Positions 12,928 through 62,223 of a DNA stretch of 64,000 bases are shown here, one piece after another. The stretch is from a bacterium (GTDB lineage Bacteria > Bdellovibrionota_C > UBA2361 > SZUA-149 > JAGRAN01), in assembly GCA_030431555.1 (NCBI GenBank), contig JAUIIP010000001.1, positions 2,062 through 66,061 of the forward strand, in the 5' to 3' direction. The notes beneath the pieces were generated by a model. It saw only the letters and a program-made list of their open reading frames with translations. It was not told the origin of the DNA and made no database searches. Position 1 is the stretch's first letter, and every line of letters begins with the position of its first letter. A program made the translations under genes and the position numbers.

Positions 12928-15135
12928 ATGAACTCGACAGCAGCTCGCAAACTCCTTCTGACGTGTGTCGCATTTGGCGGATTCGCCGGACTATGCTGGG
13001 AAATCATTTGGCAGCTGCGGGCCTCGCTTGCAATTGGTGTGTCGGCTCATGCAGCAGCCTTCGTGCTCGCTGGTACGATGGGCGGAATGACGATCGGCAC
13101 CCTGCTTAGTGGACGCCTACTCCGGATTTACCAGCAGAGGTTCTCTCCATTTACTATCTATGGCGCTCTTGAGGCAGTGGTCGGCGCCTGCGGCTTGTTT
13201 CTCGGGCAGGCGTTCGATCTGGTCAGCTCTCTCGATACTGTGAGCTACGCTTGGAGTCCGGATTTGACTCCCGTCATCCAACTTTCACTGATGCTATTTA
13301 TTATTGGCCCGCCTTCAATGGCCATGGGTGCAACAATTCCAGTGTTTGGTTTGCTGGCGAAAGCAACGGACTCGTCCGTAGCATTGCTTTACGGGCTTAA
13401 TGTTCTCGGAGCCGCCCTCGGAGTTTTGCTCCTGGCCTTCGCAATTCTACCCAGCGCCGGCCTCAACAGCGCCGGCATACTACTCGCCGGAATCAACTTC
13501 GCAATAGCTGCCTTAATGGTTATAGTCCGAGGACAGGAAACGGCACCGCAAACGCTCGACACAAATGCGCAAGAAGGCAGCGTAGAGGTCTCGGACTATT
13601 TAGCAGCGTTCATGAGCGGATTCGCGATTCTTGCACTCGAAGTGCTTTGGTTTCGGGCAATGAGGTCCGCGTTTCTCAGCACGGCACATAGCTTTTCAAT
13701 AATGCTTGCTTCCGTACTTCTATCGTTGGCCGCGGGAGCGCACTTGGCACCTGTGATACGCAGAAGCTGTATCGACAAGTCTGTTATTTTAGTGCTTGGC
13801 GGCGCGCTGGTACTATTGACGGCACCTCTGGTCGAAAGACTCGACGCGTTGACTACCTTTTATGCATTAGACCCCAACTTGAGTAAATTTCTTCTGGCCC
13901 TAGGCGTTGTCGGTCCCCCGGCTGTGGTCCTAGGGGTTATTTTTCCGTACGTGCTCGAGCGAGGGAAGCAACCTCTGAGATGGAGTCTGTTGCACGGCAG
14001 CAATACTTTTGGCGCAATCATCGGAGCTCTTGGAGCAGCCTGGATTTTCCTGCCAAGTCTAGGTGTAGCAAAGTCTCTGTGGTTAATTGGAACGTTAACT
14101 GCGGCGTTTGGTACAAGCTTGATGCAGTCCCATCTGCAGCGATTGCGGGCTCTAAGTGCCGTTGCCGCATGTGTTATCACTGCGGTTCTCGGATATTCAT
14201 CGATCGGCTCCACGCGCATAATTGGGGCAATGCGAACCGATTCGGGTGCCTATAAGGTACTGGGATACGAAGAAACTCCCGATTACTCTGTTGCGGTCAT
14301 CGAAAACGATCTTCGAAGAGCGTTGTTCATTGACGGTTTCAGTGCAAGTGCGGATCTAGGGTCTGTCGGCTATATGGCATGGATGGGAAGGCTTCCGATG
14401 CTGCTGCATGAGGCACCCAAACGGGCTCTGATAATCTGCTTCGGGCGCGGAGTTACCGCTGCCGCTCTTCGCAGCGAGAACCCGGACAGAATAGATTTGG
14501 TCGACATAAGCGACGCCGTGTTTCGAATGTCCGAGTTCTTTCAAGCAGTCAACGACAGTATTCTGGACGACCCGCGCGTGCGCACGGTTGTGATGGACGG
14601 CCGCGCCTGGCTCAGACGAACAACTTCTCTTTATGACGTTATTACACTAGAGCCGATGCCTCCAACATTCTCCGGAATGAACAATCTCTATTCCAGGGAG
14701 TTCTATCAACTGGCAAAAGCGAAATTAAATCCGGGTGGAACAATCGCGCAGTGGCTGCCGATGCATTTGCTGACACCAGAGCAAACTAGGTCGATCGCCG
14801 CTACATTCATCGAGACTTTTCCTAACTCAGTTTTATGGATTTACCAGCCTTATCGAACCGGAATACTAGTCGGCAAGAATTCAGAGGTCGATGAACTCGA
14901 CTGGCACAGACTTGAGAACCACGTACCGAGTCGGGAACTGACCGAGAAAGAAATACGTGACTCTATTATCCTCGGCAGAAAGGAACTCAGTATTTATTCA
15001 GACGGGGCCGAGATTATCACGGACGACAATCAAATGTTGTCGTACGGCTGGGGGGTTTTAATGCACGATCTGGGTGAAACGCTCGGAGTCGAGTATGAAG
15101 GTGAAAGTTTGGAACGAATTGAGGCAGCACGATGA
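12928..15135 (+). CDS. Fused MFS-like membrane domain / spermidine synthase (polyamine aminopropyltransferase)-like protein
   Basis: ~11 N-terminal TM helices; C-terminal 'ALIICFGRGVTAAALRSENPDRIDLVDISDAVF...DPRVRTVVMDGRAWL...YDVITLEP', the spermidine-synthase fold signature. Confidence 0.8.
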   Translation: MNSTAARKLLLTCVAFGGFAGLCWEIIWQLRASLAIGVSAHAAAFVLAGTMGGMTIGTLLSGRLLRIYQQRFSPFTIYGALEAVVGACGLFLGQAFDLVSSLDTVSYAWSPDLTPVIQLSLMLFIIGPPSMAMGATIPVFGLLAKATDSSVALLYGLNVLGAALGVLLLAFAILPSAGLNSAGILLAGINFAIAALMVIVRGQETAPQTLDTNAQEGSVEVSDYLAAFMSGFAILALEVLWFRAMRSAFLSTAHSFSIMLASVLLSLAAGAHLAPVIRRSCIDKSVILVLGGALVLLTAPLVERLDALTTFYALDPNLSKFLLALGVVGPPAVVLGVIFPYVLERGKQPLRWSLLHGSNTFGAIIGALGAAWIFLPSLGVAKSLWLIGTLTAAFGTSLMQSHLQRLRALSAVAACVITAVLGYSSIGSTRIIGAMRTDSGAYKVLGYEETPDYSVAVIENDLRRALFIDGFSASADLGSVGYMAWMGRLPMLLHEAPKRALIICFGRGVTAAALRSENPDRIDLVDISDAVFRMSEFFQAVNDSILDDPRVRTVVMDGRAWLRRTTSLYDVITLEPMPPTFSGMNNLYSREFYQLAKAKLNPGGTIAQWLPMHLLTPEQTRSIAATFIETFPNSVLWIYQPYRTGILVGKNSEVDELDWHRLENHVPSRELTEKEIRDSIILGRKELSIYSDGAEIITDDNQMLSYGWGVLMHDLGETLGVEYEGESLERIEAAR

Positions 15136-52178: not shown

Positions 52179-54308
52179 ATGGAAACCCCCCGCAGCAGTG
52201 ACTCGGCAAACATAATGTCCGACCTGATCAATCTCGAAGACAGGTACATAAACCGAGAACTTAGCTGGCTTCAGTTCAATTCCAGAGTCCTAGAGCAGGC
52301 CTCAGACCAAGACGTTCCGCTGCTCGAGCGCTTGAACTTTCTGCGCATTTTCGGAAGCAATTTAGACGAATTTTTCATGAAGCGTGTCGGCGGGCTAAAA
52401 CGCCATATCGCCGCCGGCGTAACTGCGCCGAGTGTTGACGGAATGACCCCCGAGCGGCAGCTAAAAGCGATTCGACATTTCCTGATCCCACAAATGGTCG
52501 AATGGGAGCGGGTCTTCTTCGAAGAATTAAAACCCCAACTCGGTGAAAGTCGCATCGAGTTGATAACCGACTGGTCTGAACTCAGTGCAGAAGAGATGCA
52601 GTTTGCTGAAAGGCATTTTAGGGAGCAAATTTTTCCCGTCTTGACTCCGCTTGCAGTCGACCCGGGACATCCCTTCCCGTTTATTTCTAACTTATCAACG
52701 TCACTCGGCGTCTCTTTGCGGCATCCCGAAATTGAAGAACCGCTGTTCGCTAGAGTCAAAATAAGCGATCTCGATCCTCAATGGCTACGACTGGACACGG
52801 GTGCGCCCGGAAACCACTACCGGTTCCTGCTGGTTCGCGAGCTAATTCAGCAATTCTTGCACGAAGTATTTCCAAATATGGAAATACGCGCCGTAATGCC
52901 TTTCCGCGTTACCCGAAATGCAGATCTTGAGATCGATGAAGAAGAAGCAGAGGACCTGCTCGAGCTGATTCGTGAAGAACTGCGCCAGCGCCGAGTCGCG
53001 AATGTTGTTCGCCTTGAACACGGTGCCAATCCGGATGCTTGGATACTTAATTTTTTAATTGAAGAGCTCTCGCTCACCCCGGACGATGTTTACGAACACA
53101 CGGGGGAACTCTACAGCCTGGACCTGCCGGAATTTCTTGGCACATCGCTTCCGGAACTCAAATACCAGACTTGGCATCCGGCCACACCTGCTTCTCTCCC
53201 GCAGGACTCAAACATGTTCAGCCTGATTCGCAACAGGGACGTGCTCGTACATCATCCGTTTGAGAGCTTTGCCCTCAGCGTTGAGCGATTTGTCAGGGAA
53301 GCGGTGGAAGACGATCGAGTCGTTTCAATAAAAATGACAGTTTACCGAGTAGGCGATGAATCACCGCTTATCCCGCTGCTGATTGAAGCAGCGCAGCGAG
53401 GGAAAGACGTCGTTTGCCTTGTGGAATTGAAAGCCAGATTCGAAGAACAGCGCAATATTACTTGGGCCCAAAAGCTCGAGAATTCCGGCGTGCACGTCGT
53501 CTACGGCATTCCCGGTCTCAAGATTCATGCGAAAACTCTACTAATAGTGCGTAAGGAACTCGAAGGTATTCGCTGTTACGCTCACTTAGCCACCGGAAAC
53601 TATCACGCCAAAACAGCGAACCTTTACACGGATGTTGGACTATTTACTTCTAAAAGTGAGTATACCTCCGAACTCGTGCATTTCTTCAATTACCTGACCG
53701 GCCGCTCACTAAAGGACGACTATCAAACATTGCTTGTTGCGCCGCTCAATATGAACGAGCGATTCATATCGATGATTCGGCGCGAAATCGAACACAAGAA
53801 GGCAGGACGACCGGCCAGAATCGTTGCAAAAATGAACAGCCTGGAGGACCGCTTTATTATTCAGTCGCTCTACGAAGCTTCCCAGGCCGGTGTGCAAATC
53901 GACTTACTCGTTCGCGGGATCTGCTGCCTGCGCCCCGGAGTAAAGGGTTTAAGCGAGAACATCCGTGTTGTATCAGTAGTCGGCCGGTTGCTCGAGCATT
54001 CGCGGATCTACTTCTTCCAAAACGGCGCTAAAGATCCCTTAGAAGGAGACTTCTACATAGGTTCCGCGGATTGGATGGGGCGCAATTTGCATAGGCGAGT
54101 AGAGGTGATAGCGCCAGTTTCCGAAAAGCTCGGACACAAGATGTGTTGGGAGATAATGGAAGTTCTCTTAAATGACAACAGGCAGGCTTGGGACATGCAG
54201 TCTGACGGCACTTACGTGCGGAGACGATCTAGCGATACCGAAGCGGTCGGCCCACATGAAACTCTGATGCGGCTCGCCAAAGCTCAGGCGAACGGCCATA
54301 TGGAATAA
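52179..54308 (+). CDS. ppk: Polyphosphate kinase 1
   Basis: 'INRELSWLQFNSRVLEQA', 'LERLNFLRIFGSNLDEFFMKRV' and both PLD-like HKD regions ('HAKTLLIV', 'IGSADWMGRNLHRRVEV'); 709 aa. Confidence 0.9.
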   Translation: METPRSSDSANIMSDLINLEDRYINRELSWLQFNSRVLEQASDQDVPLLERLNFLRIFGSNLDEFFMKRVGGLKRHIAAGVTAPSVDGMTPERQLKAIRHFLIPQMVEWERVFFEELKPQLGESRIELITDWSELSAEEMQFAERHFREQIFPVLTPLAVDPGHPFPFISNLSTSLGVSLRHPEIEEPLFARVKISDLDPQWLRLDTGAPGNHYRFLLVRELIQQFLHEVFPNMEIRAVMPFRVTRNADLEIDEEEAEDLLELIREELRQRRVANVVRLEHGANPDAWILNFLIEELSLTPDDVYEHTGELYSLDLPEFLGTSLPELKYQTWHPATPASLPQDSNMFSLIRNRDVLVHHPFESFALSVERFVREAVEDDRVVSIKMTVYRVGDESPLIPLLIEAAQRGKDVVCLVELKARFEEQRNITWAQKLENSGVHVVYGIPGLKIHAKTLLIVRKELEGIRCYAHLATGNYHAKTANLYTDVGLFTSKSEYTSELVHFFNYLTGRSLKDDYQTLLVAPLNMNERFISMIRREIEHKKAGRPARIVAKMNSLEDRFIIQSLYEASQAGVQIDLLVRGICCLRPGVKGLSENIRVVSVVGRLLEHSRIYFFQNGAKDPLEGDFYIGSADWMGRNLHRRVEVIAPVSEKLGHKMCWEIMEVLLNDNRQAWDMQSDGTYVRRRSSDTEAVGPHETLMRLAKAQANGHME

Positions 54309-54319
54309 CGGATTGCGAA

Positions 54320-54859
54320 GTGAAAATTATTATTCTGCGACACGCGATTGCTGAAGACCGCGATGCCTGGGCGGACAAGAGCGAGGACGACAGCTTGCGC
54401 CCGCTCACCGAACGCGGCATATCGCGCTTGCATCAAGCCTGCTTAGGGCTCAAGACCGTGGTCGATCGAGTCGACGCAATCGTCAGCAGCTCCCTAACAC
54501 GGGCGCAGCAAACTGCACAGATTTTATTTGAGTACTACCCGGACGCAGAGCTCGGGGAGGACCCGGATTTGGAACCGGGTGGCGACTTGGATTCCCTCGT
54601 CGACCGACTTGCCGATTCGAGCGATAGTGCCGTCATCGTACTAATCGGGCACGAACCCGATCTGTCGACGCTGCTCGGCTTACTAATCGCCGGTGCGGAA
54701 CGCTCAATCGCTAAACTTAAAAAAGCCTCGGCAGTATGTGTTGATTTCTCTGTAGAAAATGGAGATTTTTATGCACGCTTGCTTTGGCTGCTCCCCCCCG
54801 CTGTCCTGCGCTCATTAGGCCGAGAGCGTGAGGGCGTCGTGCAAAATGCCGTCGACTAG
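54320..54859 (+). CDS. sixA: Phosphohistidine phosphatase SixA-like (histidine phosphatase superfamily)
   Basis: 'IIILRHAIAE' (RHG-type motif) and 'IVLIGHEPDLS'; GTG start 12 nt after the ppk1 stop. Confidence 0.7.
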   Translation: MKIIILRHAIAEDRDAWADKSEDDSLRPLTERGISRLHQACLGLKTVVDRVDAIVSSSLTRAQQTAQILFEYYPDAELGEDPDLEPGGDLDSLVDRLADSSDSAVIVLIGHEPDLSTLLGLLIAGAERSIAKLKKASAVCVDFSVENGDFYARLLWLLPPAVLRSLGREREGVVQNAVD

Positions 54860-55744
54860 TGACTTGGAGGTCGGCGTGATTTCCTCAGCACCGAAATAAG
54901 CTGCAACCTCATCCAGGATTAAAGCAGCTGCTAGAATAAGGTCAACGCGCCGCGGCTCGAGTTCCGGAATCATAGCCAACTCTGATTTATCCATCACTTC
55001 GATTCGTTTGATAAACGAGCCGAGATCGCGCCTGTCGAATGGACCATTTTCGCCCGCTGCATGCGTACAAACCTTGCCAAGCGCTCGAATTGAGCCGCTG
55101 GAGCCTATTAATTTTTGTGCGTGATTGAATGAAAAATTCTTCGAAAGCTCGTCAAGCTTGCTGCGCAAAGCGCGGCGAAGCTGCAGCTGTGCCTCTTCTC
55201 GCGGCGGAGCAGACTTTAGATAGTTCTGCTGAGAACGAGCTGCGCCAAAACGCAGACTTGTGGAAAACTCTATATCGGCACCGTGGCAGAGGCTTAGCTC
55301 AGTTGAACCCCCACCGATATCAAGCAGTACCAGCGGCTCACCGGACCGCTCAAACACGCCGGCCGTCACACCAACAGCAATAAGACGCGCTTCCTCTTCT
55401 TCTGAAATAACTTCTATCTCAATTCCGGTTTCGCGCTGCACTTCTGCTACGAACTGCGCTGAATCATCGGCCTCTCGCAAAGCGCTTGTACCGACAGCTC
55501 GCACAAGTTCTGGTGAAAATTGTTCAAGCAGCACCTTGAAATACTTAAACGCAGCAATGCCGCGCTGTCTCGCCTCCTGTGTCAAACAGTTGTCATCAAA
55601 CAGACCGTCACCAAGACGGATCATAATTTTTTCTTTGCAGCGGGGCACTATTTTGCCGCTTCGACCAATGTCGAATACGTAAAAACGAACAGAGTTCGTT
55701 CCGCAGTCAATAATCGCTATGTTGTCCGGACTTTCTACGCTCAC
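54815..55744 (-). CDS. ppx: Exopolyphosphatase / guanosine pentaphosphate phosphohydrolase (Ppx/GppA family, N-terminal ASKHA domains only, ~310 aa)
   Basis: 'IAIIDCGTNSVRFYVFDI' and 'VLLDIGGGSTELSL' actin-like ATPase motifs. Confidence 0.8.
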   Translation of the reverse strand: MSVESPDNIAIIDCGTNSVRFYVFDIGRSGKIVPRCKEKIMIRLGDGLFDDNCLTQEARQRGIAAFKYFKVLLEQFSPELVRAVGTSALREADDSAQFVAEVQRETGIEIEVISEEEEARLIAVGVTAGVFERSGEPLVLLDIGGGSTELSLCHGADIEFSTSLRFGAARSQQNYLKSAPPREEAQLQLRRALRSKLDELSKNFSFNHAQKLIGSSGSIRALGKVCTHAAGENGPFDRRDLGSFIKRIEVMDKSELAMIPELEPRRVDLILAAALILDEVAAYFGAEEITPTSKSLVDGILHDALTLSA

Positions 55745-55815: not shown

Positions 55816-57714
55816 TCAGCGTTGAAAAAAAGAATTCTTTGCCCAGCGGCCAAGCTCCATAACCGGAGCGGCAAAAAAATTCAAGTACTTCCTTGCCGTT
55901 CTATTATTCAAGAGGATAGCGGCCAAACGATCTATCGGTTCACTTGCCAAAATATCAAACTCCTCGGCTCGTCGCTCAGAGTGAAACTCTCGATAGCGCT
56001 CGGCAATATCGATTCCAGCCAGCGAAAGCTCAAAGCGCTCCTGATCTTCAACCTGCTCTTTACGGCTCTTAGACTCGTAGTGGTACGCGGTCGCTCGTGG
56101 AGAGTATATTGTCCGCCAACCGGTCTCTCTAGCAGTCTCGCAAAACAAAGCATCCCCAAAACCATTTGGGCATAAGAATTCATCAAGACCGCCGACCTCC
56201 TCAAACAACTCCCTACGAACCAGAGCCATCGCGAAGGACACACCGTCAACTTCTCGGCAGAGATCTTGGTACTCACCCACTGAATCCACATTTTTGGGGC
56301 CAAGAGCACTAAAAACGATGCCGCCGTGCTGGACGCTTGAATCGGGGTAAAAGAGCTTACCTCCGACAATTCCAACGTCCGGCAGCCGCATCCACCCCAG
56401 CATCCGAGCAATTGTCTTGGAGTCGAGCAATTCTACGTCGTTGTTAAGCCATAGGTAAAAGTCAGCATCTGCAGCTCGCGTTCCGACATTAATCAGACGT
56501 GCAAAATTAAAGTAGTCGGTGTCATTAACAAAGCGCACACGAAAAGCGCTGCTAACGCTTTCGTTAACAAACTGTCGAACTCTCTCGAGCTCTTCCGGAG
56601 CAGAGTTATTATTTACAAGCGACACACTGACTTCTCCCAGTCCCTGCTGCTTGCTAAGAGATTTTAGACATTTAATTGTATCGTCAGCACAGTCTCTGAA
56701 GGGAATAACTACGTTGAGGCGCCCTTCAACAGGTGCAAAAACTGGAGTAACGGCTCGGGCTGACAGAAGTCCTATCGACTCCTCATGCAGCTCTTCGAGC
56801 GGCAGTTCCAGCCGCTGAGCAATCAACGTGGACAGGTTTCGCACTGACTCGTAGTCAGGCAGATTTTTATTGAAACTACCGAGCGACTGAAAGCTTAATG
56901 AAAGCGGTATCAGCCTGGGGTCGGCTCCGGCCATCTGGGCTGAAGCCGCAAGAGTCCAAAAGAATACATTGCTGCTCGCAGCGTCCAGCAAGTTGTCTGC
57001 TAGAACGGTGCTTAGAAACTCTCTGCCAAAACACAGGCAGCCGCCGGTATGATCGAACGACAGTAAATCGTACGGACCGGGCTCAGAGCGTCTCATATAT
57101 TTTGAGGCGACTTTAAAGCTACTGCGCATTACGAGGTGATTACTAAATAGAACAGGAGAATCGAGTGCAATTGCATTTTTGACAGCGATGAACAGCGCTT
57201 GAGGGTTTAAGATAAGCTCTTTATCAAGCAGCAGCACTCGACGCGACTCCATTCCAGAGACCGTCTCTCGCAGGAGGTCGATATCGACCTCTTCTTCCAC
57301 TTGCACCGCCGAAAGCCGTCCGGCAAGTATGGGAAAGTCTAGGGTGCATTCTTGAAGCAGCGTATGCGACGCTCCAAACAACACTATCTCAGTCGGCGGC
57401 AAACTCTGGCAGGAGATGGAGTGAAGGAGCAATTTGATGTTTTTGCGCTCCGCTCCAGCGCAAAAAGCAATTAGCGCTATCGTTTCATCCTTAAGTTCAG
57501 TACGAGCAAAGCTGTTCTGCCAAGCACATGCCCGCTCGAGGAGCTCCAACTTTCTGCGAACACCCGGCAGTAGCTGCAAGGCAGTAGTCGCCAGCGCTGT
57601 TTCGGCAATCGCGCAGCGCTGCAGGCCCGCGTCAGCTTGAGCTGCCCTCTCAATTGGAAGAATGTTCTCCGATCTAGCGTTCATACTCGCGGCAGTATAT
57701 TTGCACAGTTCCAA
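55816..57714 (-). CDS. Two-domain glycosyltransferase (C-terminal GT2 catalytic domain)
   Basis: 'VVIPFRDCADDTIKCLKSL', 'YLWLNNDVELL' (DxD context) and 'GGKLFYPDSSVQHGGIVF'; N-terminal second GT-like domain. Confidence 0.75.
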   Translation of the reverse strand: MELCKYTAASMNARSENILPIERAAQADAGLQRCAIAETALATTALQLLPGVRRKLELLERACAWQNSFARTELKDETIALIAFCAGAERKNIKLLLHSISCQSLPPTEIVLFGASHTLLQECTLDFPILAGRLSAVQVEEEVDIDLLRETVSGMESRRVLLLDKELILNPQALFIAVKNAIALDSPVLFSNHLVMRSSFKVASKYMRRSEPGPYDLLSFDHTGGCLCFGREFLSTVLADNLLDAASSNVFFWTLAASAQMAGADPRLIPLSLSFQSLGSFNKNLPDYESVRNLSTLIAQRLELPLEELHEESIGLLSARAVTPVFAPVEGRLNVVIPFRDCADDTIKCLKSLSKQQGLGEVSVSLVNNNSAPEELERVRQFVNESVSSAFRVRFVNDTDYFNFARLINVGTRAADADFYLWLNNDVELLDSKTIARMLGWMRLPDVGIVGGKLFYPDSSVQHGGIVFSALGPKNVDSVGEYQDLCREVDGVSFAMALVRRELFEEVGGLDEFLCPNGFGDALFCETARETGWRTIYSPRATAYHYESKSRKEQVEDQERFELSLAGIDIAERYREFHSERRAEEFDILASEPIDRLAAILLNNRTARKYLNFFAAPVMELGRWAKNSFFQR

Positions 57715-57809
57715 TAAGGAAAGCCCAGGATCTAGGCAAGGACCTTAGACTGAAACTCCAGCCAAAAACCTGTGATTATCAGGGCTTAAATTTCGCTTAG
57801 TATGGCATG

Positions 57810-58625
57810 TCACCTTCGCGCACCGCGGCGAAACCTGGAGTCATTCCAATAGTCCGAGCCGCCCCAAAGCTTTTGCAGCGGCCACTTGCCCTTGCGTTGC
57901 GGAGCGGTCGCTGGGGGTTGCTTGCTCCATGTAACCTTGAGCGCACCGTTGGTGCTGAACGAAGACGGAGAATGGACCGTATATGGTCCGGAATCTTTCC
58001 AGACTTTACTGCCTGGAGCCTCAGGCTGCTGCTCCATACGATACGCGCCCCCATCCGTATAGAATACACCTGAATGCTTCCAAGTGCCCTTGGGACTCGG
58101 AAGCACAAACGAATAGCGTGACTCCGGCTCAATTGAGAGCTCTGCTGAACGCGGCCCGTCATTTGTGGAAATTTGAGCTGTCCAAATACCGACTAGTCGA
58201 CTGTCGACGCTGTGCTGCTTAGGTTCCGGAGTTCGTTCTTCAAAATCACTGGGCTGCAAGGCAGGCGGTGCACCATCCGACGCAAATTCTCTCGCTGCTC
58301 TTTGCGAGCTCTTACCTGAATGAAGTACTGAGTGGCCCGTCGGCTGATTGCACGCACGGATGTCCTTCACGACCGTTACGAACAACAACAGCGCAATTGC
58401 GCCGGCGACTGCCTTCCACACCCAGTCACACATGTCCGGCTGCAAAGAGTCGCCGAGGACAGATTCAGGTTTACTGTCAGGAGACACAGCGGAAGGAACA
58501 GGCGGCAGCGCCCCACAGGTTGGACAGCTTGGAGTTACTAAGCTGTCATAAACCTGGGCGCAGGCACAGCGCACAAGCCTGCTTGTCTGCACAGCTCCAT
58601 CGGCGATCGGTTCGCCATACGGCAT
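57810..58625 (-). CDS. Zinc-ribbon / single-pass membrane protein, paralog 2 (track ORF extends to 58763; 'MPYGEP' start preferred to avoid overlap with paralog 1)
   Basis: 'CACAQVYDSLVTPSCPTCGA' zinc ribbon; TM 'AVAGAIALLLFVTVV'; C-terminal domain 'LVGIWTAQISTNDGPRSAELSIEPESRYSF...KHSGVFYTDGGAYRM' parallels paralog 1. Confidence 0.55.
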   Translation of the reverse strand: MPYGEPIADGAVQTSRLVRCACAQVYDSLVTPSCPTCGALPPVPSAVSPDSKPESVLGDSLQPDMCDWVWKAVAGAIALLLFVTVVKDIRACNQPTGHSVLHSGKSSQRAAREFASDGAPPALQPSDFEERTPEPKQHSVDSRLVGIWTAQISTNDGPRSAELSIEPESRYSFVLPSPKGTWKHSGVFYTDGGAYRMEQQPEAPGSKVWKDSGPYTVHSPSSFSTNGALKVTWSKQPPATAPQRKGKWPLQKLWGGSDYWNDSRFRRGARR

Positions 58626-58642
58626 TCCGCGCTTGCGGGCAC

Positions 58643-59341
58643 TCACTTTACCTTTCCCCACTGCCCTGTCCCCAAGGCCCCCATCATCACAAACAGGTTG
58701 GAGCGTGGAACCGAATAGCTCCCGCCATCCTTCCAGCCTGTATTGGTAGAGCGCAGCTTCCATTTTCCATTTTGGGCGGAAAATTCGCCGGCGTGCTGAA
58801 CCGAAGCCATTCCTCCCGAGGTTTTAAAGGCGTAAGTACCGTCTGAGCGAACGTCGATCTGCCATATCTCTTCGCCGTTCATCGTCCGAACAGTCTGCTG
58901 CCATGTTCCAACCAACTTAGGATCGACGACACCGTCTGAGACTTTTGCGTCTACTCGCTCAAAGGCATCTGATCCAAACTTGCCCATCGGCGAGTCCGAC
59001 ATATCCAGATGCGCAACAGCCTCGCCTTGCGTTCCCGCCGACTGCGCCGTATCGCCAACAGTCTTGTCGCTGCCGCTTCGCAGCATCAAGTACACAAGGA
59101 AGACTGCGGCAAACGCCATTGAAATCTTTTTCCAGTCGCGCTGAGCCGCTTGAGGAGAATGTGAAATGTCAGGAGACGCCTCCAATGCCTGCGCAAGAGT
59201 CTGCTCCCGCGAACCACTCGAGACGCCAGCCGCTCCGCACTCAGGACATTTTTCATGCTTTATTAGATCAAACACTTCACCGCATACGCAGCGATGCATT
59301 TTCATCGATGCGTCTTCCGTCATCCCCATGGATTCCACCAA
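58643..59341 (-). CDS. Zinc-ribbon / single-pass membrane protein, paralog 1
   Basis: 'HRCVCGEVFDLIKHEKCPECGA'; TM 'ISMAFAAVFLVYLML'; C-terminal 'LVGTWQQTVRTMNGEEIWQIDVRSDGTYAF...QHAGEFSAQNGKWKL'. Confidence 0.55.
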   Translation of the reverse strand: MVESMGMTEDASMKMHRCVCGEVFDLIKHEKCPECGAAGVSSGSREQTLAQALEASPDISHSPQAAQRDWKKISMAFAAVFLVYLMLRSGSDKTVGDTAQSAGTQGEAVAHLDMSDSPMGKFGSDAFERVDAKVSDGVVDPKLVGTWQQTVRTMNGEEIWQIDVRSDGTYAFKTSGGMASVQHAGEFSAQNGKWKLRSTNTGWKDGGSYSVPRSNLFVMMGALGTGQWGKVK

Positions 59342-60333
59342 TTTCGTTTAACCGGTTTGGGCTGCGGGACCATCGACGAGCCCTGCTTGCCGCGATCAGC
59401 TTTCGGACCATCCGTCTTCCTGTCTTTCGTCTCTCTTTTCTCGGGAGGTTTCATGGCAGCTTCTTCCTTTTTGCGCTTTACATACTCGGCCACGATTTCA
59501 CGCTCTTTGGCCCGCTGCTCACTAGTCGCCTCAGTGAAGGCGACGTTGTAGTCACCCTCTTCGGGGTAATTAATGAAGCCAACCAGTTCCCAGGTCTTCT
59601 TGCCGTTTAGAACCAAGTCTGGAAGTTTGTGATCTGCAATCTTTGCGCCGAAGATACCCCCGCCTACCTTGCAGTCTTTAGTATTAGCATCCGCCCCGGG
59701 TAGATAGTAGTAAAGCTTGTAGCTGTTGCCGCCGGGCACATCGCGAATCATCCAAATGTCAGACCCAGGGCCTGAAGGATCGTCAACGTACTCGTCTCCG
59801 GACCAAAAATCAGTTTGTTTTATATTCGGATCGAAGTATGGCTGCGCATTCCCACCTTCGCCTTTAACTTGGGTATACAAATAAAGATTCACATCGATGC
59901 CGGTACATTCGAACCAGACGTCAATTAGGTAAGGAGTGCGCCATTCGAGTCGATTGTTTCGTTTGCTGAGCTTTTCGTTTTCCTTCTGATAGCGATTCTT
60001 CATCGCAGTAGCTTGGTCTAAACGGTCTCGCAGATCCGCCATGCGCCTATTGGCATCCTCAATCGCCCGCTTGGCCTCGCTTAGCTCTCGCAAAACCCGT
60101 TCAACATCTACGTCAGAGCCGGCCTCGCGAAACATTTTTTCGACTTGTTCTATTTTTTCCTGCGCCTTCTTAAGTTCGCGCTGCAGCTTCGCTACACTCT
60201 CAGAATTCTCCGGGCTACCCTCATAGTACCGTGCGAGGACGATAAGAATTATTAAGAAGGCTCCCATTGCCCCCGAGATGACATCCATCATCGAGAGGCT
60301 GAAGATGTTTATCTCTCGGTTACGCCGCTGCAT
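59320..60333 (-). CDS. ExbD/TolR/MotB-family TM subunit with a long non-canonical C-terminal region (coiled coil + unknown ~170-aa domain + Lys/Arg-rich tail)
   Basis: N-terminal 'REINIFSLSMMDVISGAMGAFLIILIVL' matches the TolR/ExbD TM motif (EINVTPLIDVMLVLLIIF), including the conserved protonatable Asp; heptad-rich 'AKLQRELKKAQEKIEQVEKMFREAG...RRMADLRDRLDQATAMKNRYQKENEKLSKRNNRLE'; the C-terminal domain has no recognisable motif. Confidence 0.6.
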   Translation of the reverse strand: MQRRNREINIFSLSMMDVISGAMGAFLIILIVLARYYEGSPENSESVAKLQRELKKAQEKIEQVEKMFREAGSDVDVERVLRELSEAKRAIEDANRRMADLRDRLDQATAMKNRYQKENEKLSKRNNRLEWRTPYLIDVWFECTGIDVNLYLYTQVKGEGGNAQPYFDPNIKQTDFWSGDEYVDDPSGPGSDIWMIRDVPGGNSYKLYYYLPGADANTKDCKVGGGIFGAKIADHKLPDLVLNGKKTWELVGFINYPEEGDYNVAFTEATSEQRAKEREIVAEYVKRKKEEAAMKPPEKRETKDRKTDGPKADRGKQGSSMVPQPKPVKRNWWNPWG

Positions 60334-60354
60334 CAGGCAACACTCTAAGACTAA

Positions 60355-61173
60355 CTAGGCTGCTTCCTTCTCGACGTAGAGTCGATTAATCAAGTTCTTT
60401 AGGGTGTAGTCCCCCGCCCGGTTCATCGCCAACTCTTCGTTAGTTTGAACAATGTGTTGAAGCAGCACGAGAACTGCGCTGAGAACCAACGCGATAATTG
60501 TGGTATTGAAAGCAACGCTCAGACTCCCGGTAACCTTGCCGAGATCCATATGATCCGGGTCAACAAAGCCCAATGCGTTTGCAATGCCAACAACTGTACC
60601 AATGAAACCTACAGTCGGAATCGCCCAGACGACATACCGGGTAAGTGAATAGTTTAGATCAACTCTGTGGCTGATTAAATCTAGACTGCTGTTTAAAACA
60701 CTGACGGCCTGATCAACTGAGCGACTCGCTTGGAACTGAAGAATGCATAGATTTATCAAATACGGGAGAATGCCGGTATCCGCCGTAAAGCGATGGGCGA
60801 CAGACTGACGAATCTCACCTAGATCCTTTGCACGCAAAACAGTGTGATCATCTTCCGGGAGAAAACTTTCGCCGAGCAGTTTGATTTCCTGTCGTGCAGC
60901 CCAGGCGCGAAGAAAAAGCTCGCCTAGGCAAACGGCAAATAGAATGTACATCAAGTTCTGAATAGTCAGCGGGTACGGGAAGGAAGAGTAAACGGTATAA
61001 TCGAGCAAGAACACTGCCATCGAGCTGTCCTTCGGCAAGACTAACGTCAAGAAGGCAATCGTAAAACACGCTGCCCCAACTGCCATGCTTAGAACACGAG
61101 TTCTTGGAAGCTTAGTTAAGTGCGCGACCGCGGGTACTCTGAAGAATCCCGATACGAGGGATGACTCTGACAT
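60355..61173 (-). CDS. MotA/TolQ/ExbB-family proton-channel protein (4 TM helices)
   Basis: TM3/TM4 signatures 'IPTVGFIGTVVGIANALGFV' (compare the GLLGTVxGI consensus) and 'LSVAFNTTIIALVLSAVLVLL' (compare IAEALxATAxGL); 22 bp upstream of the ExbD-like gene. Confidence 0.7.
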   Translation of the reverse strand: MSESSLVSGFFRVPAVAHLTKLPRTRVLSMAVGAACFTIAFLTLVLPKDSSMAVFLLDYTVYSSFPYPLTIQNLMYILFAVCLGELFLRAWAARQEIKLLGESFLPEDDHTVLRAKDLGEIRQSVAHRFTADTGILPYLINLCILQFQASRSVDQAVSVLNSSLDLISHRVDLNYSLTRYVVWAIPTVGFIGTVVGIANALGFVDPDHMDLGKVTGSLSVAFNTTIIALVLSAVLVLLQHIVQTNEELAMNRAGDYTLKNLINRLYVEKEAA

Positions 61174-61278: not shown

Positions 61279-62223
61279 CTAACTCTGGGAACTGAATCGC
61301 TTCTTCAGTTCAGAGCCAATTCCGACTATGGACACGTGGTTTAAGGGGAATTCGAGTAGAACGTGAAGCAAACTGAGCAACAGCAGCGCTATCAATCCCA
61401 CGGTATAGTTGAACGCATACAACATTACCGCGAATATCCAGCCTCCGACTATCACCAGCAGTCTTCTGCGTGATATTTCATGCCAGCCGATAACCTTCGT
61501 CTTAGAGAACCAGTTTAAGTAGTGGTACGTATATGCGAAGGCGATAAACCGCATAACCGCGACAAGCACATCCCACGAACCTTCCAGCCCAAACATCCTA
61601 ACCAGCTCAGCCTGCACAGGCTTGAAGGGAGCAATTGCATTCTCTACATAGCTGCCTAAAACGTAACCATGAGCGGGAGGTGTAATGACGAAAAAAATTA
61701 AACCGCAAAACAAAAATACAGCAAACGACAGATAACCCGAGGCGCTCTCACTCTTCAGCGCGCCATATAAAATGAAAAGTCCTGTGAAAATGTAAACATG
61801 AACTATTGTCGGGAGCATAAGTGAAACAAGCACGCCAAAGCTGGGAAACCCAGCCAGCACCAGCCCGCAAAAAAGCAGCGCCACACCGAGCATTACCTTT
61901 TGAACAGTACGCTTTAAAATCACCATACCCAGTGCACTCGCAAAGGCGAGCCAGACCAAAATAGTATTGCTGTAGACGCCCGGCATGAACTGGTAATCCA
62001 GGCCGAGAGTGACCGGGACCGCTGGTACCATTAAAAATAAATAGTCGTATTTTCCCGTCGTGAAATAGTTGCGATCGTGAAGCCAGGAAATTTCAGTCAG
62101 GTAATGCAGGGGCCCCAGCACGGCATAAGAAAATAGGAACAGCTCATACGGCATGTAGTACGCAAACGCGCAGGAAACGAGCATTAAGAAGATGTTTAGA
62201 TAATTAATCTGGTTCAGCGTCAT
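61279..62223 (-). CDS. Polytopic membrane protein with conserved His motifs ('GPLHYLTEISWL', 'YTYHYLNWF'); unknown family
   Basis: ~9 TM helices; weak similarity to the 35467-36495 product. Confidence 0.55.
   Translation of the reverse strand: MTLNQINYLNIFLMLVSCAFAYYMPYELFLFSYAVLGPLHYLTEISWLHDRNYFTTGKYDYLFLMVPAVPVTLGLDYQFMPGVYSNTILVWLAFASALGMVILKRTVQKVMLGVALLFCGLVLAGFPSFGVLVSLMLPTIVHVYIFTGLFILYGALKSESASGYLSFAVFLFCGLIFFVITPPAHGYVLGSYVENAIAPFKPVQAELVRMFGLEGSWDVLVAVMRFIAFAYTYHYLNWFSKTKVIGWHEISRRRLLVIVGGWIFAVMLYAFNYTVGLIALLLLSLLHVLLEFPLNHVSIVGIGSELKKRFSSQS

Follow-up and report, generated by a model that had tools for sequence, protein, structure and literature searches.

A MotAB/ExbBD-like pair with a putatively TerD-like head on its proposed axle subunit and with zinc-ribbon partners forms a conserved bacterial gene cassette

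Here we describe a four-gene cassette in a 64,000-nucleotide stretch of DNA, the window, from a bacterium of the GTDB lineage Bdellovibrionota_C (GenBank assembly GCA_030431555.1, contig JAUIIP010000001.1, positions 2,062 to 66,061). The cassette encodes a MotA/ExbB-family membrane protein (A), a bitopic partner (B) and two zinc-ribbon membrane proteins (C and D), all on the minus strand and tightly packed within 57810-61173. A (60355-61173, 272 aa) belongs to the MotA/ExbB/TolQ family by its match to PF01618, its transmembrane (TM) segments and its conservation. It is followed after 21 nt by B (59320-60333, 337 aa), which runs from an aspartate-bearing TM helix through a stalk of coiled coil to a beta-sandwich head, a further helix and a basic tail. 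C (58643-59329, 228 aa by the public gene call) overlaps B by 10 nt, and D (57810-58646, 278 aa by the gene call), a paralog of C with a basic C-terminal extension, overlaps C by 4 nt. The longest open reading frames (ORFs) of these two genes are 58643-59341 and 57810-58763, the gene calls beginning at 59329 and 58646. A GT2 glycosyltransferase gene (55816-57714, 632 aa, PF00535 at E 9e-11) lies on the same strand 95 nt beyond D and is a neighbour outside the conserved system. These ORFs are present as described in an earlier note made from the sequence alone; three assembled contigs carry identical copies of the A-D stretch, and gene callers agree on the same calls. The A/B pair is real and not a chance pair of ORFs, because 42 clusters among 5.8 billion are homologous to B, with no Pfam domain or informative name for any of them, and because the cassette recurs in 11 genomes. 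Our reading, to which we give a probability of roughly two in three, is that A and B form an ion-driven, probably proton-driven, complex of the 5:2 MotAB/ExbBD type, in which the axle carries a new head and the zinc-ribbon proteins act as adaptors.

A is a compact four-TM protein of the MotA/ExbB family and, as the earlier note held, not ZorA-like; the PF01618 (MotA_ExbB) match predicted there was found over residues 151-245 with E 3.7e-12 and 46.6 bits (cutoff 22.9). Hydropathy places the TM segments at residues 27-45, 69-87, 180-198 and 214-232. Four lysines or arginines ahead of TM1 give a MotA-like N-in charge bias, a strongly conserved cytoplasmic domain occupies about residues 90-177, and the chain ends about 30 residues past TM4. 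The last two TM helices (residues 180-232; 60478-60636, minus strand), which contain PTVGFIGTVVGI and AFNTTIIAL, are the predicted lining of the pore. When A was compared by hhalign with proteins drawn from the annotated E. coli K-12 genome, its alignment A4 matched ExbB with 78% probability, residues 181-245 falling on ExbB 136-201; the values for TolQ and MotA were 41% and 1%. Read from this alignment, Thr193 lies on ExbB T148 and Thr225 on ExbB T181. Thr193 and Thr224/225 are invariant in an alignment of 30 A sequences from several phyla that has 39 invariant columns in all. Residues 221-224 in TM4 (AFNT, GFDC, GFNC or AFYT) vary together with the type of B helix; this covariation is consistent with a contact, but it is confounded by phylogeny, and shared ancestry could also explain it.

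A forms its own tight subfamily with more than 50% identity across phyla, and across all 11 cassette loci it is 57-87% identical (57-66% between phyla). By sequence it is not an ortholog of any named stator, since the NCBIfam MotA, PomA and TolQ models give just 12-15 bits against cutoffs above 220. PADLOC matches of A are weak (E 1e-2 to 1e-4) and lie on the shared TM core alone.

B starts MQRRNREINIFSLSMMDVISGAMGAFLIILIVLARYY. Its predicted TM, or 'transpore', helix covers residues 10-36 (IFSLSMMDVISGAMGAFLIILIVLARY; 60226-60306, minus strand), with the codon of Asp17 at 60283-60285. The N-terminus, REINIFSLSMMDVISGAMGAFLII, is extraordinarily conserved: D17, V18, I19, G21-L27 and Y37 are invariant in 34 sequences. 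The claim that B retains one N-terminal TM helix bearing a protonatable aspartate was borne out: Asp17 is found without exception in 34 of 34 relatives, and 139 of 150 representatives from the wider family have it too. Three lysines or arginines precede the helix, one follows it, and an acidic stretch comes after; B has one TM helix, N-in, and the remainder of the chain is probably extracytoplasmic. The 41-residue module that contains this helix is encoded directly after the A-subunit gene in all 11 genomes.

The homology of B to the B-subunit class rests on anatomy and gene context, with no significant profile match. We place B as a B-type subunit because it combines an N-in aspartate helix with adjacency to A and because the 64-kb window offers no other candidate. 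In hhalign comparisons of the module, 23 columns put D17 on MotB D32 (P 0.004); with TolR it fell on D23 (P 0.064), and a control with TolA gave nothing. The pattern D-x-x-[ST]-[AG]-x-M-[AG]-x-F in the helix resembles DFMTAMMAFF of MotB, with D17 at the position of MotB D32. Searched against PADLOC, the isolated module touched ZorB models only (E 0.004-0.06; 5-7 of 23 members; model positions 9-42). The helix thus looks more MotB/ZorB-like than ExbD-like, and B would act like a B subunit, although we do not assign it to the ExbD or MotB families.

Beyond the membrane, B departs from every classical partner. AlphaFold2 (AF2), run with the 34-sequence alignment, modelled B with a predicted local distance difference test score (pLDDT) of 81. 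The TM helix spans residues 11-39 and is followed by helices at 41-70 and 77-130. A beta-sandwich with pLDDT above 90 then fills 135-268, ahead of one more helix (271-294) and a basic tail without order. The two helices after the membrane form the predicted coiled-coil stalk (residues 41-130, about 90 residues; 59944-60213, minus strand), which also matches tetherin, keratin and tropomyosin coiled-coil profiles and would measure about 13 nm as a straight coiled coil. Searches of full-length B against Pfam, NCBIfam, PADLOC and PDB profiles brought up SMC, DndD, LmuB, JetC, tropomyosin and the like, all of which we discarded as artefacts of coiled-coil composition.

The head (residues 131-268; 59530-59943, minus strand) reached pLDDT 93 when modelled alone. 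The earlier note was right that the periplasmic part combines a coiled coil with a domain that is neither ExbD-like nor OmpA-like; the domain measures about 135 aa plus one helix, and not about 170 aa as estimated. The same note saw no recognisable motif there, yet TerD is the best structural match, and the predicted fold is probably recognisable as a distant, TerD-like one. The TerD profile PF02342 matched none of 31 B head sequences at E<=1, Foldseek of the head against the PDB gave nothing under E 0.04, and PDB profile searches with the isolated head and with the isolated N-terminal module returned nothing meaningful. PDB matches of the head to uL13 (E 0.013) span only the last strand and a helix, and DUF2135 matches in one or two relatives (E 0.16-0.18) are not significant; both were rejected. 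No ExbD/TolR fold and no OmpA-like peptidoglycan-binding domain was found in the periplasmic part by Pfam, in the AF2 model or by structure comparison, and no MotB-like plug was identified in B.

The only two cysteines of B, C143 and C221, both lie within the head. Across 34 relatives they are both present in 24 and both absent in 10, and never occur singly. This co-varying pair probably forms a disulfide, and the head is therefore probably periplasmic, in agreement with the charge bias around the helix. The C-terminal helix (271-294) and the disordered tail rich in lysine, arginine and glutamate (together 59320-59529, including the stop codon, minus strand) end in ...KRNWWNPWG. The tail, with pLDDT of about 50-60 beyond residue 300, is disordered in the model; the earlier note had already read it as basic. 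Only P0001-P0004, the closest relatives, share this tail (residues ~295-337; 59323-59450) with its aromatic end, which reads WWNPW, WWKPW or a more degenerate SWFSRLF in them.

The two zinc-ribbon/TM paralogs that the earlier note placed behind the pair are indeed there, as C and D (BLASTP E 1e-19, 25% identity). Each has a CxC...CPxC ribbon, one TM helix and a beta-rich domain; in C the RCxCG...CPxCG ribbon is cytoplasmic and the beta-rich C-terminal domain small and periplasmic. R13, C14, C16, D21, C28, P29 and C31 of C are invariant. Just two homologous clusters of C were found in a large database, and C is therefore fast-evolving; the D ortholog in the closest relative, L007, is 50% identical. 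A C/D alignment searched against the PDB matched no solved zinc ribbon, that of GltJ included.

A genome scan with one genome per species found 11 cassette loci, spread over four phyla. The carriers comprise a Bdellovibrionales metagenome-assembled genome (MAG; L007), whose B is 70% identical to that of the window, Gamma- and Alphaproteobacteria, Rhizomicrobium, Motiliproteus, Halioglobus and two Phycisphaerae (Planctomycetota). The co-occurrence of A and B that the earlier note had set as a check holds throughout, the two genes being strictly adjacent in 11 of 11 genomes, and in all 11 they are followed by a gene for a protein starting with the same zinc ribbon. Synteny of 57810-61173, about which that note asked, holds for A, B and one zinc-ribbon gene in 11 of 11, and the second zinc-ribbon copy is found in the window, L007 and L013. 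Thus the conserved unit is three genes (MotA-like, B and zinc-ribbon/TM). B is 29-70% identical across the 11 loci, and the third protein keeps its ribbon and TM helix while its length (198-413 aa) and C-terminal part vary; in one relative it ends in Sel1 repeats. At L004/L009, from a Gammaproteobacteria MAG, two phage-type integrases, a PIN/RHH toxin-antitoxin pair and a Sel1-repeat protein lie about 1-8 kb downstream, an island-like context unseen at the other loci. Literature searches, largely without subscription journals, returned no description of the cassette.

The conservation data also bear on the idea, raised by the position of the glycosyltransferase, that 55816-61173 is one functional operon in which the pair serves polysaccharide synthesis or export, or gliding, together with GT2. 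GT2 is on the same strand only 95 nt downstream of D, this arrangement is kept in L007, and B weakly matches NCBIfam models of HpsJ-like proteins from a polysaccharide locus (E 2e-4, below cutoff). However, GT2 does not adjoin the cassette in the other 10 genomes or in the metagenomic loci, so that its membership of the operon, as first proposed, shrinks to synteny with a single 70%-identical Bdellovibrionales relative. The conservation in L007 extends equally to an MFS transporter and a 314-aa membrane protein, which like GT2 are common to this closest relative only; because the synteny covers unrelated flanking genes as well, it reflects close relatedness and not a GT2 linkage. The HpsJ matches span the TM helix and the coiled coil, lie far under the cutoffs and were set aside. 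We therefore regard a polysaccharide or gliding role with GT2 as very unlikely. The 95-nt gap between D and GT2 contains a weak terminator-like hairpin (57723-57737); a promoter and terminator scan gave fewer sites than in shuffled sequence and is uninformative.

That the pair is an ordinary Tol, Ton or flagellar stator with a merely divergent B is the least likely of the readings that we weighed, and we hold it to be extremely improbable. It can draw on the PF01618 match of A and on the EINI...DV motif of B, which is like the N-termini of TolR and ExbD; the gene order, A then B, is also shared with tolQ-tolR, and of the E. coli proteins compared, ExbB and TolQ give the best alignments to the pore helices of A, which retain both threonines. 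ExbB and TolQ have three TM segments. A differs from them in its four segments and N-in bias, and it resembles MotA and ZorA in the number of segments, without the large torque interface of MotA or the long tail of ZorA. B has neither the periplasmic fold of ExbD and TolR nor the OmpA-like peptidoglycan-binding domain of MotB and ZorB. The histidine of the SHLS motif of TonB and TolA is missing from the TM helices of C and D, and no TonB or TolA with such a helix, Pal, TolB or TonB-dependent receptor was found by the pair. The statement that no TonB, Pal, flagellar or OmpA-domain gene is adjacent proved true of the entire window: tblastn with E. coli proteins detected no gene for TonB, TolA, TolB, Pal, an OmpA-domain protein, a flagellar protein or a second MotA/ExbB-type protein in the 64 kb. 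A weak tblastn match to TolQ at 13622-13876 is spurious, being antisense to the gene of a 735-aa membrane protein. Nor do the low NCBIfam stator scores of A and its tight subfamily across phyla fit a divergent copy of a known system.

The cassette is embedded in a far larger family. MotA-like homologs of A number 1,434 at E<=1e-5 (at least 1,400 clusters at 90% identity), and among the best 120 listed, identity to A is 50-100% across most of its length. A metagenome scan for A found 456 relatives, from which 80 loci were kept. In metagenomic and genomic loci searched with local hidden Markov models (HMMs), a B-module ORF is present in 62 of the 72 loci with sufficient downstream sequence, nearly always right after the MotA gene, and 34 of these 62 have the same beta-sandwich head. 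Run against 1.84 billion representatives with a threshold of E<=1e-3, a profile of the 41-residue module matched 1,052 proteins, or some 1,050 clusters at 50% identity, and in every case at residues 1-41. The sandwich head is present in 69 of 120 full-length representatives. Ten module proteins without it were scanned: five end in clear vWA domains, and a sixth gives a weak integrin-type vWA match. The module itself matches in the vWA-ending proteins with E 1e-11 to 1e-18. At least one relative comes from a cultured organism, Desulfatirhabdium butyrativorans (L018), and is of the FHA type; its B-like protein (L018:6777-7586) matches DUF5697 over the coiled coil and head with E 1.2e-5 and 26 bits (cutoff 27). 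DUF5697 matches none of the cassette-type B proteins, and we found no paper on it.

Genes of phosphorylation-dependent signalling surround many of these relatives. By neighbour clustering and Pfam, 34 of 94 loci encode an FHA protein as the immediate upstream neighbour of MotA, and other neighbours are PP2C phosphatases (25 loci), Ser/Thr kinases, and vWA-FHA and trypsin-FHA proteins. An HMM of the C/D-type ribbon (RCxCG..YD......CPxCG) matches in at least 27 of 40 well-flanked loci, a lower bound, as three more loci have a ribbon protein by BLAST. Three arrangements occur: a ribbon joined to a TM helix and a variable domain, a ribbon heading an FHA protein, and a ribbon that ends the upstream FHA protein. 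Ribbon-FHA fusions occur at L018, L020, L027, L028, L040, L049, L069, L090 and others; there the FHA protein just upstream of MotA has the ribbon at its C-terminus, and a second one, downstream of B, has it at its N-terminus. Judged by these matches, the zinc ribbon is the third constant module of the family, besides A and B. The window cassette is without FHA, PP2C or kinase genes and is a minimal member of this larger family. The candidate new machine of the earlier note therefore has some precedent: it belongs, as one branch, to this large family, and a computational study of 2025 proposed a sibling type.

By analogy with characterised motors, five copies of A would surround a dimer of B TM helices, and Asp17, lying within the threonine ring, would bind and release protons and thereby make A rotate around B. 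Both B chains may extend as a parallel coiled-coil stalk of about 13 nm, which would hold the head near the peptidoglycan or the outer membrane. There the TerD-like head, presumably stabilised by its disulfide, would take the place of the domain with which classical B subunits bind peptidoglycan or TonB, and it might anchor to, or sense, an envelope component. The cytoplasmic ribbon of C and D would probably dock on the conserved cytoplasmic face of A, and their TM helix and periplasmic domain could carry the output.

Several observations weigh against this proposal. The match to PF02472 (ExbD) that the earlier note predicted for the first ~40 aa of B is absent, and no ExbD, TolR or MotB profile in the Pfam and PDB searches matched B, its 34 relatives or the isolated 41-aa module; the ZorB and MotB matches of the module are weak. 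Moreover, in a subgroup of B-like proteins (~300-650 aa) alanine replaces the aspartate, with a lysine four residues later (E[VI]ALMAV[MIV]TKAMGAFL); the classical aspartate mechanism is therefore not usable by every family member. This subgroup comprises L047, L061, L063, L070, L075, L080, L081, L083, L089, L093, L095, L097 and L098. The partner MotA proteins keep both threonines and always have tyrosine at the N223 position. No compensating charge change was seen in A where B loses its aspartate, the only change being Tyr223, which is present in aspartate-type systems too.

The same subgroup also speaks for A and B being a sensor and not a force-generating rotary motor, either a gated channel for ions or a static scaffold that holds signalling proteins at the membrane, and for that branch such a reading is more plausible. 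The tight linkage of relatives to FHA, PP2C and Ser/Thr kinase genes points the same way, as does a family member in an Acidimicrobiia MAG. Acidimicrobiia are generally regarded as monoderm, lacking an outer membrane to which force could be delivered, and their membership argues that the common function of the family is not force delivery to the outer membrane. For the window, however, the near-invariant aspartate helix of its own branch and the threonine positions fit the constraint pattern of working 5:2 motors, and a long rigid coiled-coil stalk suits mechanical transmission. A channel or scaffold is accordingly an unlikely account of the cassette, and an ion-driven motor remains our preferred one.

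The closest precedent for such a motor is the set of TolQ-like proteins paired with vWA proteins through a 'transpore helix' (TPH-vWA pairs). In that work (PMC12204202, Mol Biol Evol 2025), tolQ-like genes were found to co-occur tightly with TM-tethered vWA proteins without tolR or exbD. AlphaFold3 models put the aspartate pair of the transpore helix inside the threonine ring of a TolQ-like pentamer, and the vWA partner was proposed, computationally, as a dimeric axle. As in those pairs, the window has a MotA/TolQ-family gene without tolR, exbD or motB nearby, and a partner with an aspartate-bearing N-terminal helix and a non-canonical periplasmic head. Tandem B genes are a further likeness: two B paralogs follow the MotA-like gene at eight loci (L053, L056, L058, L064, L065, L066, L084 and L098), which suggests heterodimeric axles as in the published pairs. 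Unlike them, B carries a putatively TerD-like sandwich on a coiled-coil stalk in place of a vWA domain, and PMC12204202 makes no mention of a zinc-ribbon partner or of an FHA/PP2C/kinase context. Because the vWA-headed siblings carry the same N-terminal module as B, the window pair is very probably a sibling branch of the TPH-vWA family with a different head. The B-module family and the family of PMC12204202 are likely the same. A survey of MotAB relatives (mBio 2025) describes heterogeneous 'generic ion transporters', not the stalk-and-head architecture of B.

The adaptors have a parallel in the Myxococcus gliding motor. AglRQS, of the TolQR type, works with the bitopic partners GltJ (zinc ribbon, GYF, TM helix, periplasmic domain) and GltG (FHA, FHA, TM helix, periplasmic domain) (PMC11761067). 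C, D and the FHA and zinc-ribbon proteins of relatives share this order of cytoplasmic domain, TM helix and periplasmic domain, a likeness of architecture alone. The ribbons themselves have no sequence similarity, the periplasmic ends of C and D are not like the C-terminal domain of TonB, and no Glt outer-membrane or periplasmic components lie nearby.

Signalling neighbours and a TerD-like head also recall conflict systems, and the cassette could in principle be a Zorya-kind anti-phage system in which a MotAB-like membrane sensor of envelope perturbation signals to an effector. Zorya sets the precedent for a MotAB-like pair outside motility, and PADLOC touches ZorA and ZorB models only, if weakly. 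The cassette is patchy across phyla, yet its MotA is 57-66% identical between them; the third component evolves fast, the periplasmic end varies, and one cassette sits beside integrases and a PIN/RHH pair. TerY-P triads of vWA, PP2C and kinase genes are described in the literature, and some TerY-P-like modules have been reported as defence systems; the vWA, PP2C and kinase genes beside relatives, together with the vWA heads of siblings and the TerD-like head of B, resemble them in theme only. The resemblance stops at several points. B heads lack a Pfam TerD match, and the head is membrane-tethered and probably periplasmic. TerD proteins are soluble and cytoplasmic. The cassette itself encodes no kinase or phosphatase, and PADLOC run on the kinases, phosphatases and vWA proteins of relatives gave generic kinase-domain matches only, with no TerY-P assignment.

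Against a Zorya-kind system, the cassette contains no effector, whether a nuclease, an ATPase or a ZorC/D/E-like protein, and no flagellar genes; A lacks the long ZorA tail, and its PADLOC scores come from the shared TM core. Cassette neighbours give no PADLOC matches, flanking genes vary between loci and are mostly housekeeping, and no copies were found on viral contigs, phage genomes or plasmids. We consider a defence role improbable, about on a par with the channel or scaffold.

Some neighbours of the cassette deserve mention in their own right. In GT2 the glycosyltransferase domain is confined to residues ~330-560 of 632, and the N-terminal ~320 residues match no family. Directly upstream of A, 61279-62223 (minus strand) encodes the 314-aa polytopic membrane protein, for which Pfam, NCBIfam and PADLOC gave no match. 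The Bdellovibrionales relative has it with 83% identity, and it is absent from the other cassette loci. A polyphosphate gene cluster occupies 52179-55744 of the window, with polyphosphate kinase 1 (52179-54308, plus strand), a histidine-phosphatase-family protein (54320-54859, plus strand) and a Ppx/GppA phosphatase (54815-55744, minus strand); a PPK2 gene lies somewhat beyond it on the matching public contig.

Cells use ion-driven 5:2 motors to turn flagella, import nutrients, maintain the outer membrane, glide, drive type 9 secretion and, in one system, defend themselves against phages, and each newly understood motor has revealed a new way of delivering membrane energy to a distant target. 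The family described here is large, spans several phyla and has had no experimental study. It is unlike any characterised motor in its swappable axle heads, its constant zinc-ribbon adaptor and its frequent linkage to Ser/Thr phosphorylation genes. As the ribbon of relatives is fused to FHA domains and lies beside genes for PP2C phosphatases and Ser/Thr kinases, it seems that the family overall links a membrane motor with signalling; for the window system, a role in envelope sensing or remodelling is our best guess. More tentatively, and with the odds against it, the cassette may be the minimal form of an unrecognised major class of 5:2 motors, defined by a highly conserved MotA-like subunit of its own, an axle with swappable extracytoplasmic heads, among them the TerD-like sandwich and vWA, and an obligatory zinc-ribbon adaptor, and mostly coupling proton flow to FHA/PP2C/kinase signalling. 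If this were true, a motor class would serve transmembrane sensing and signal transduction, and not transport or motility, across diderm phyla and in at least one Acidimicrobiia MAG. In any case the four-gene cassette of the window, free of the kinase layer, is the simplest version of the family for reconstitution.

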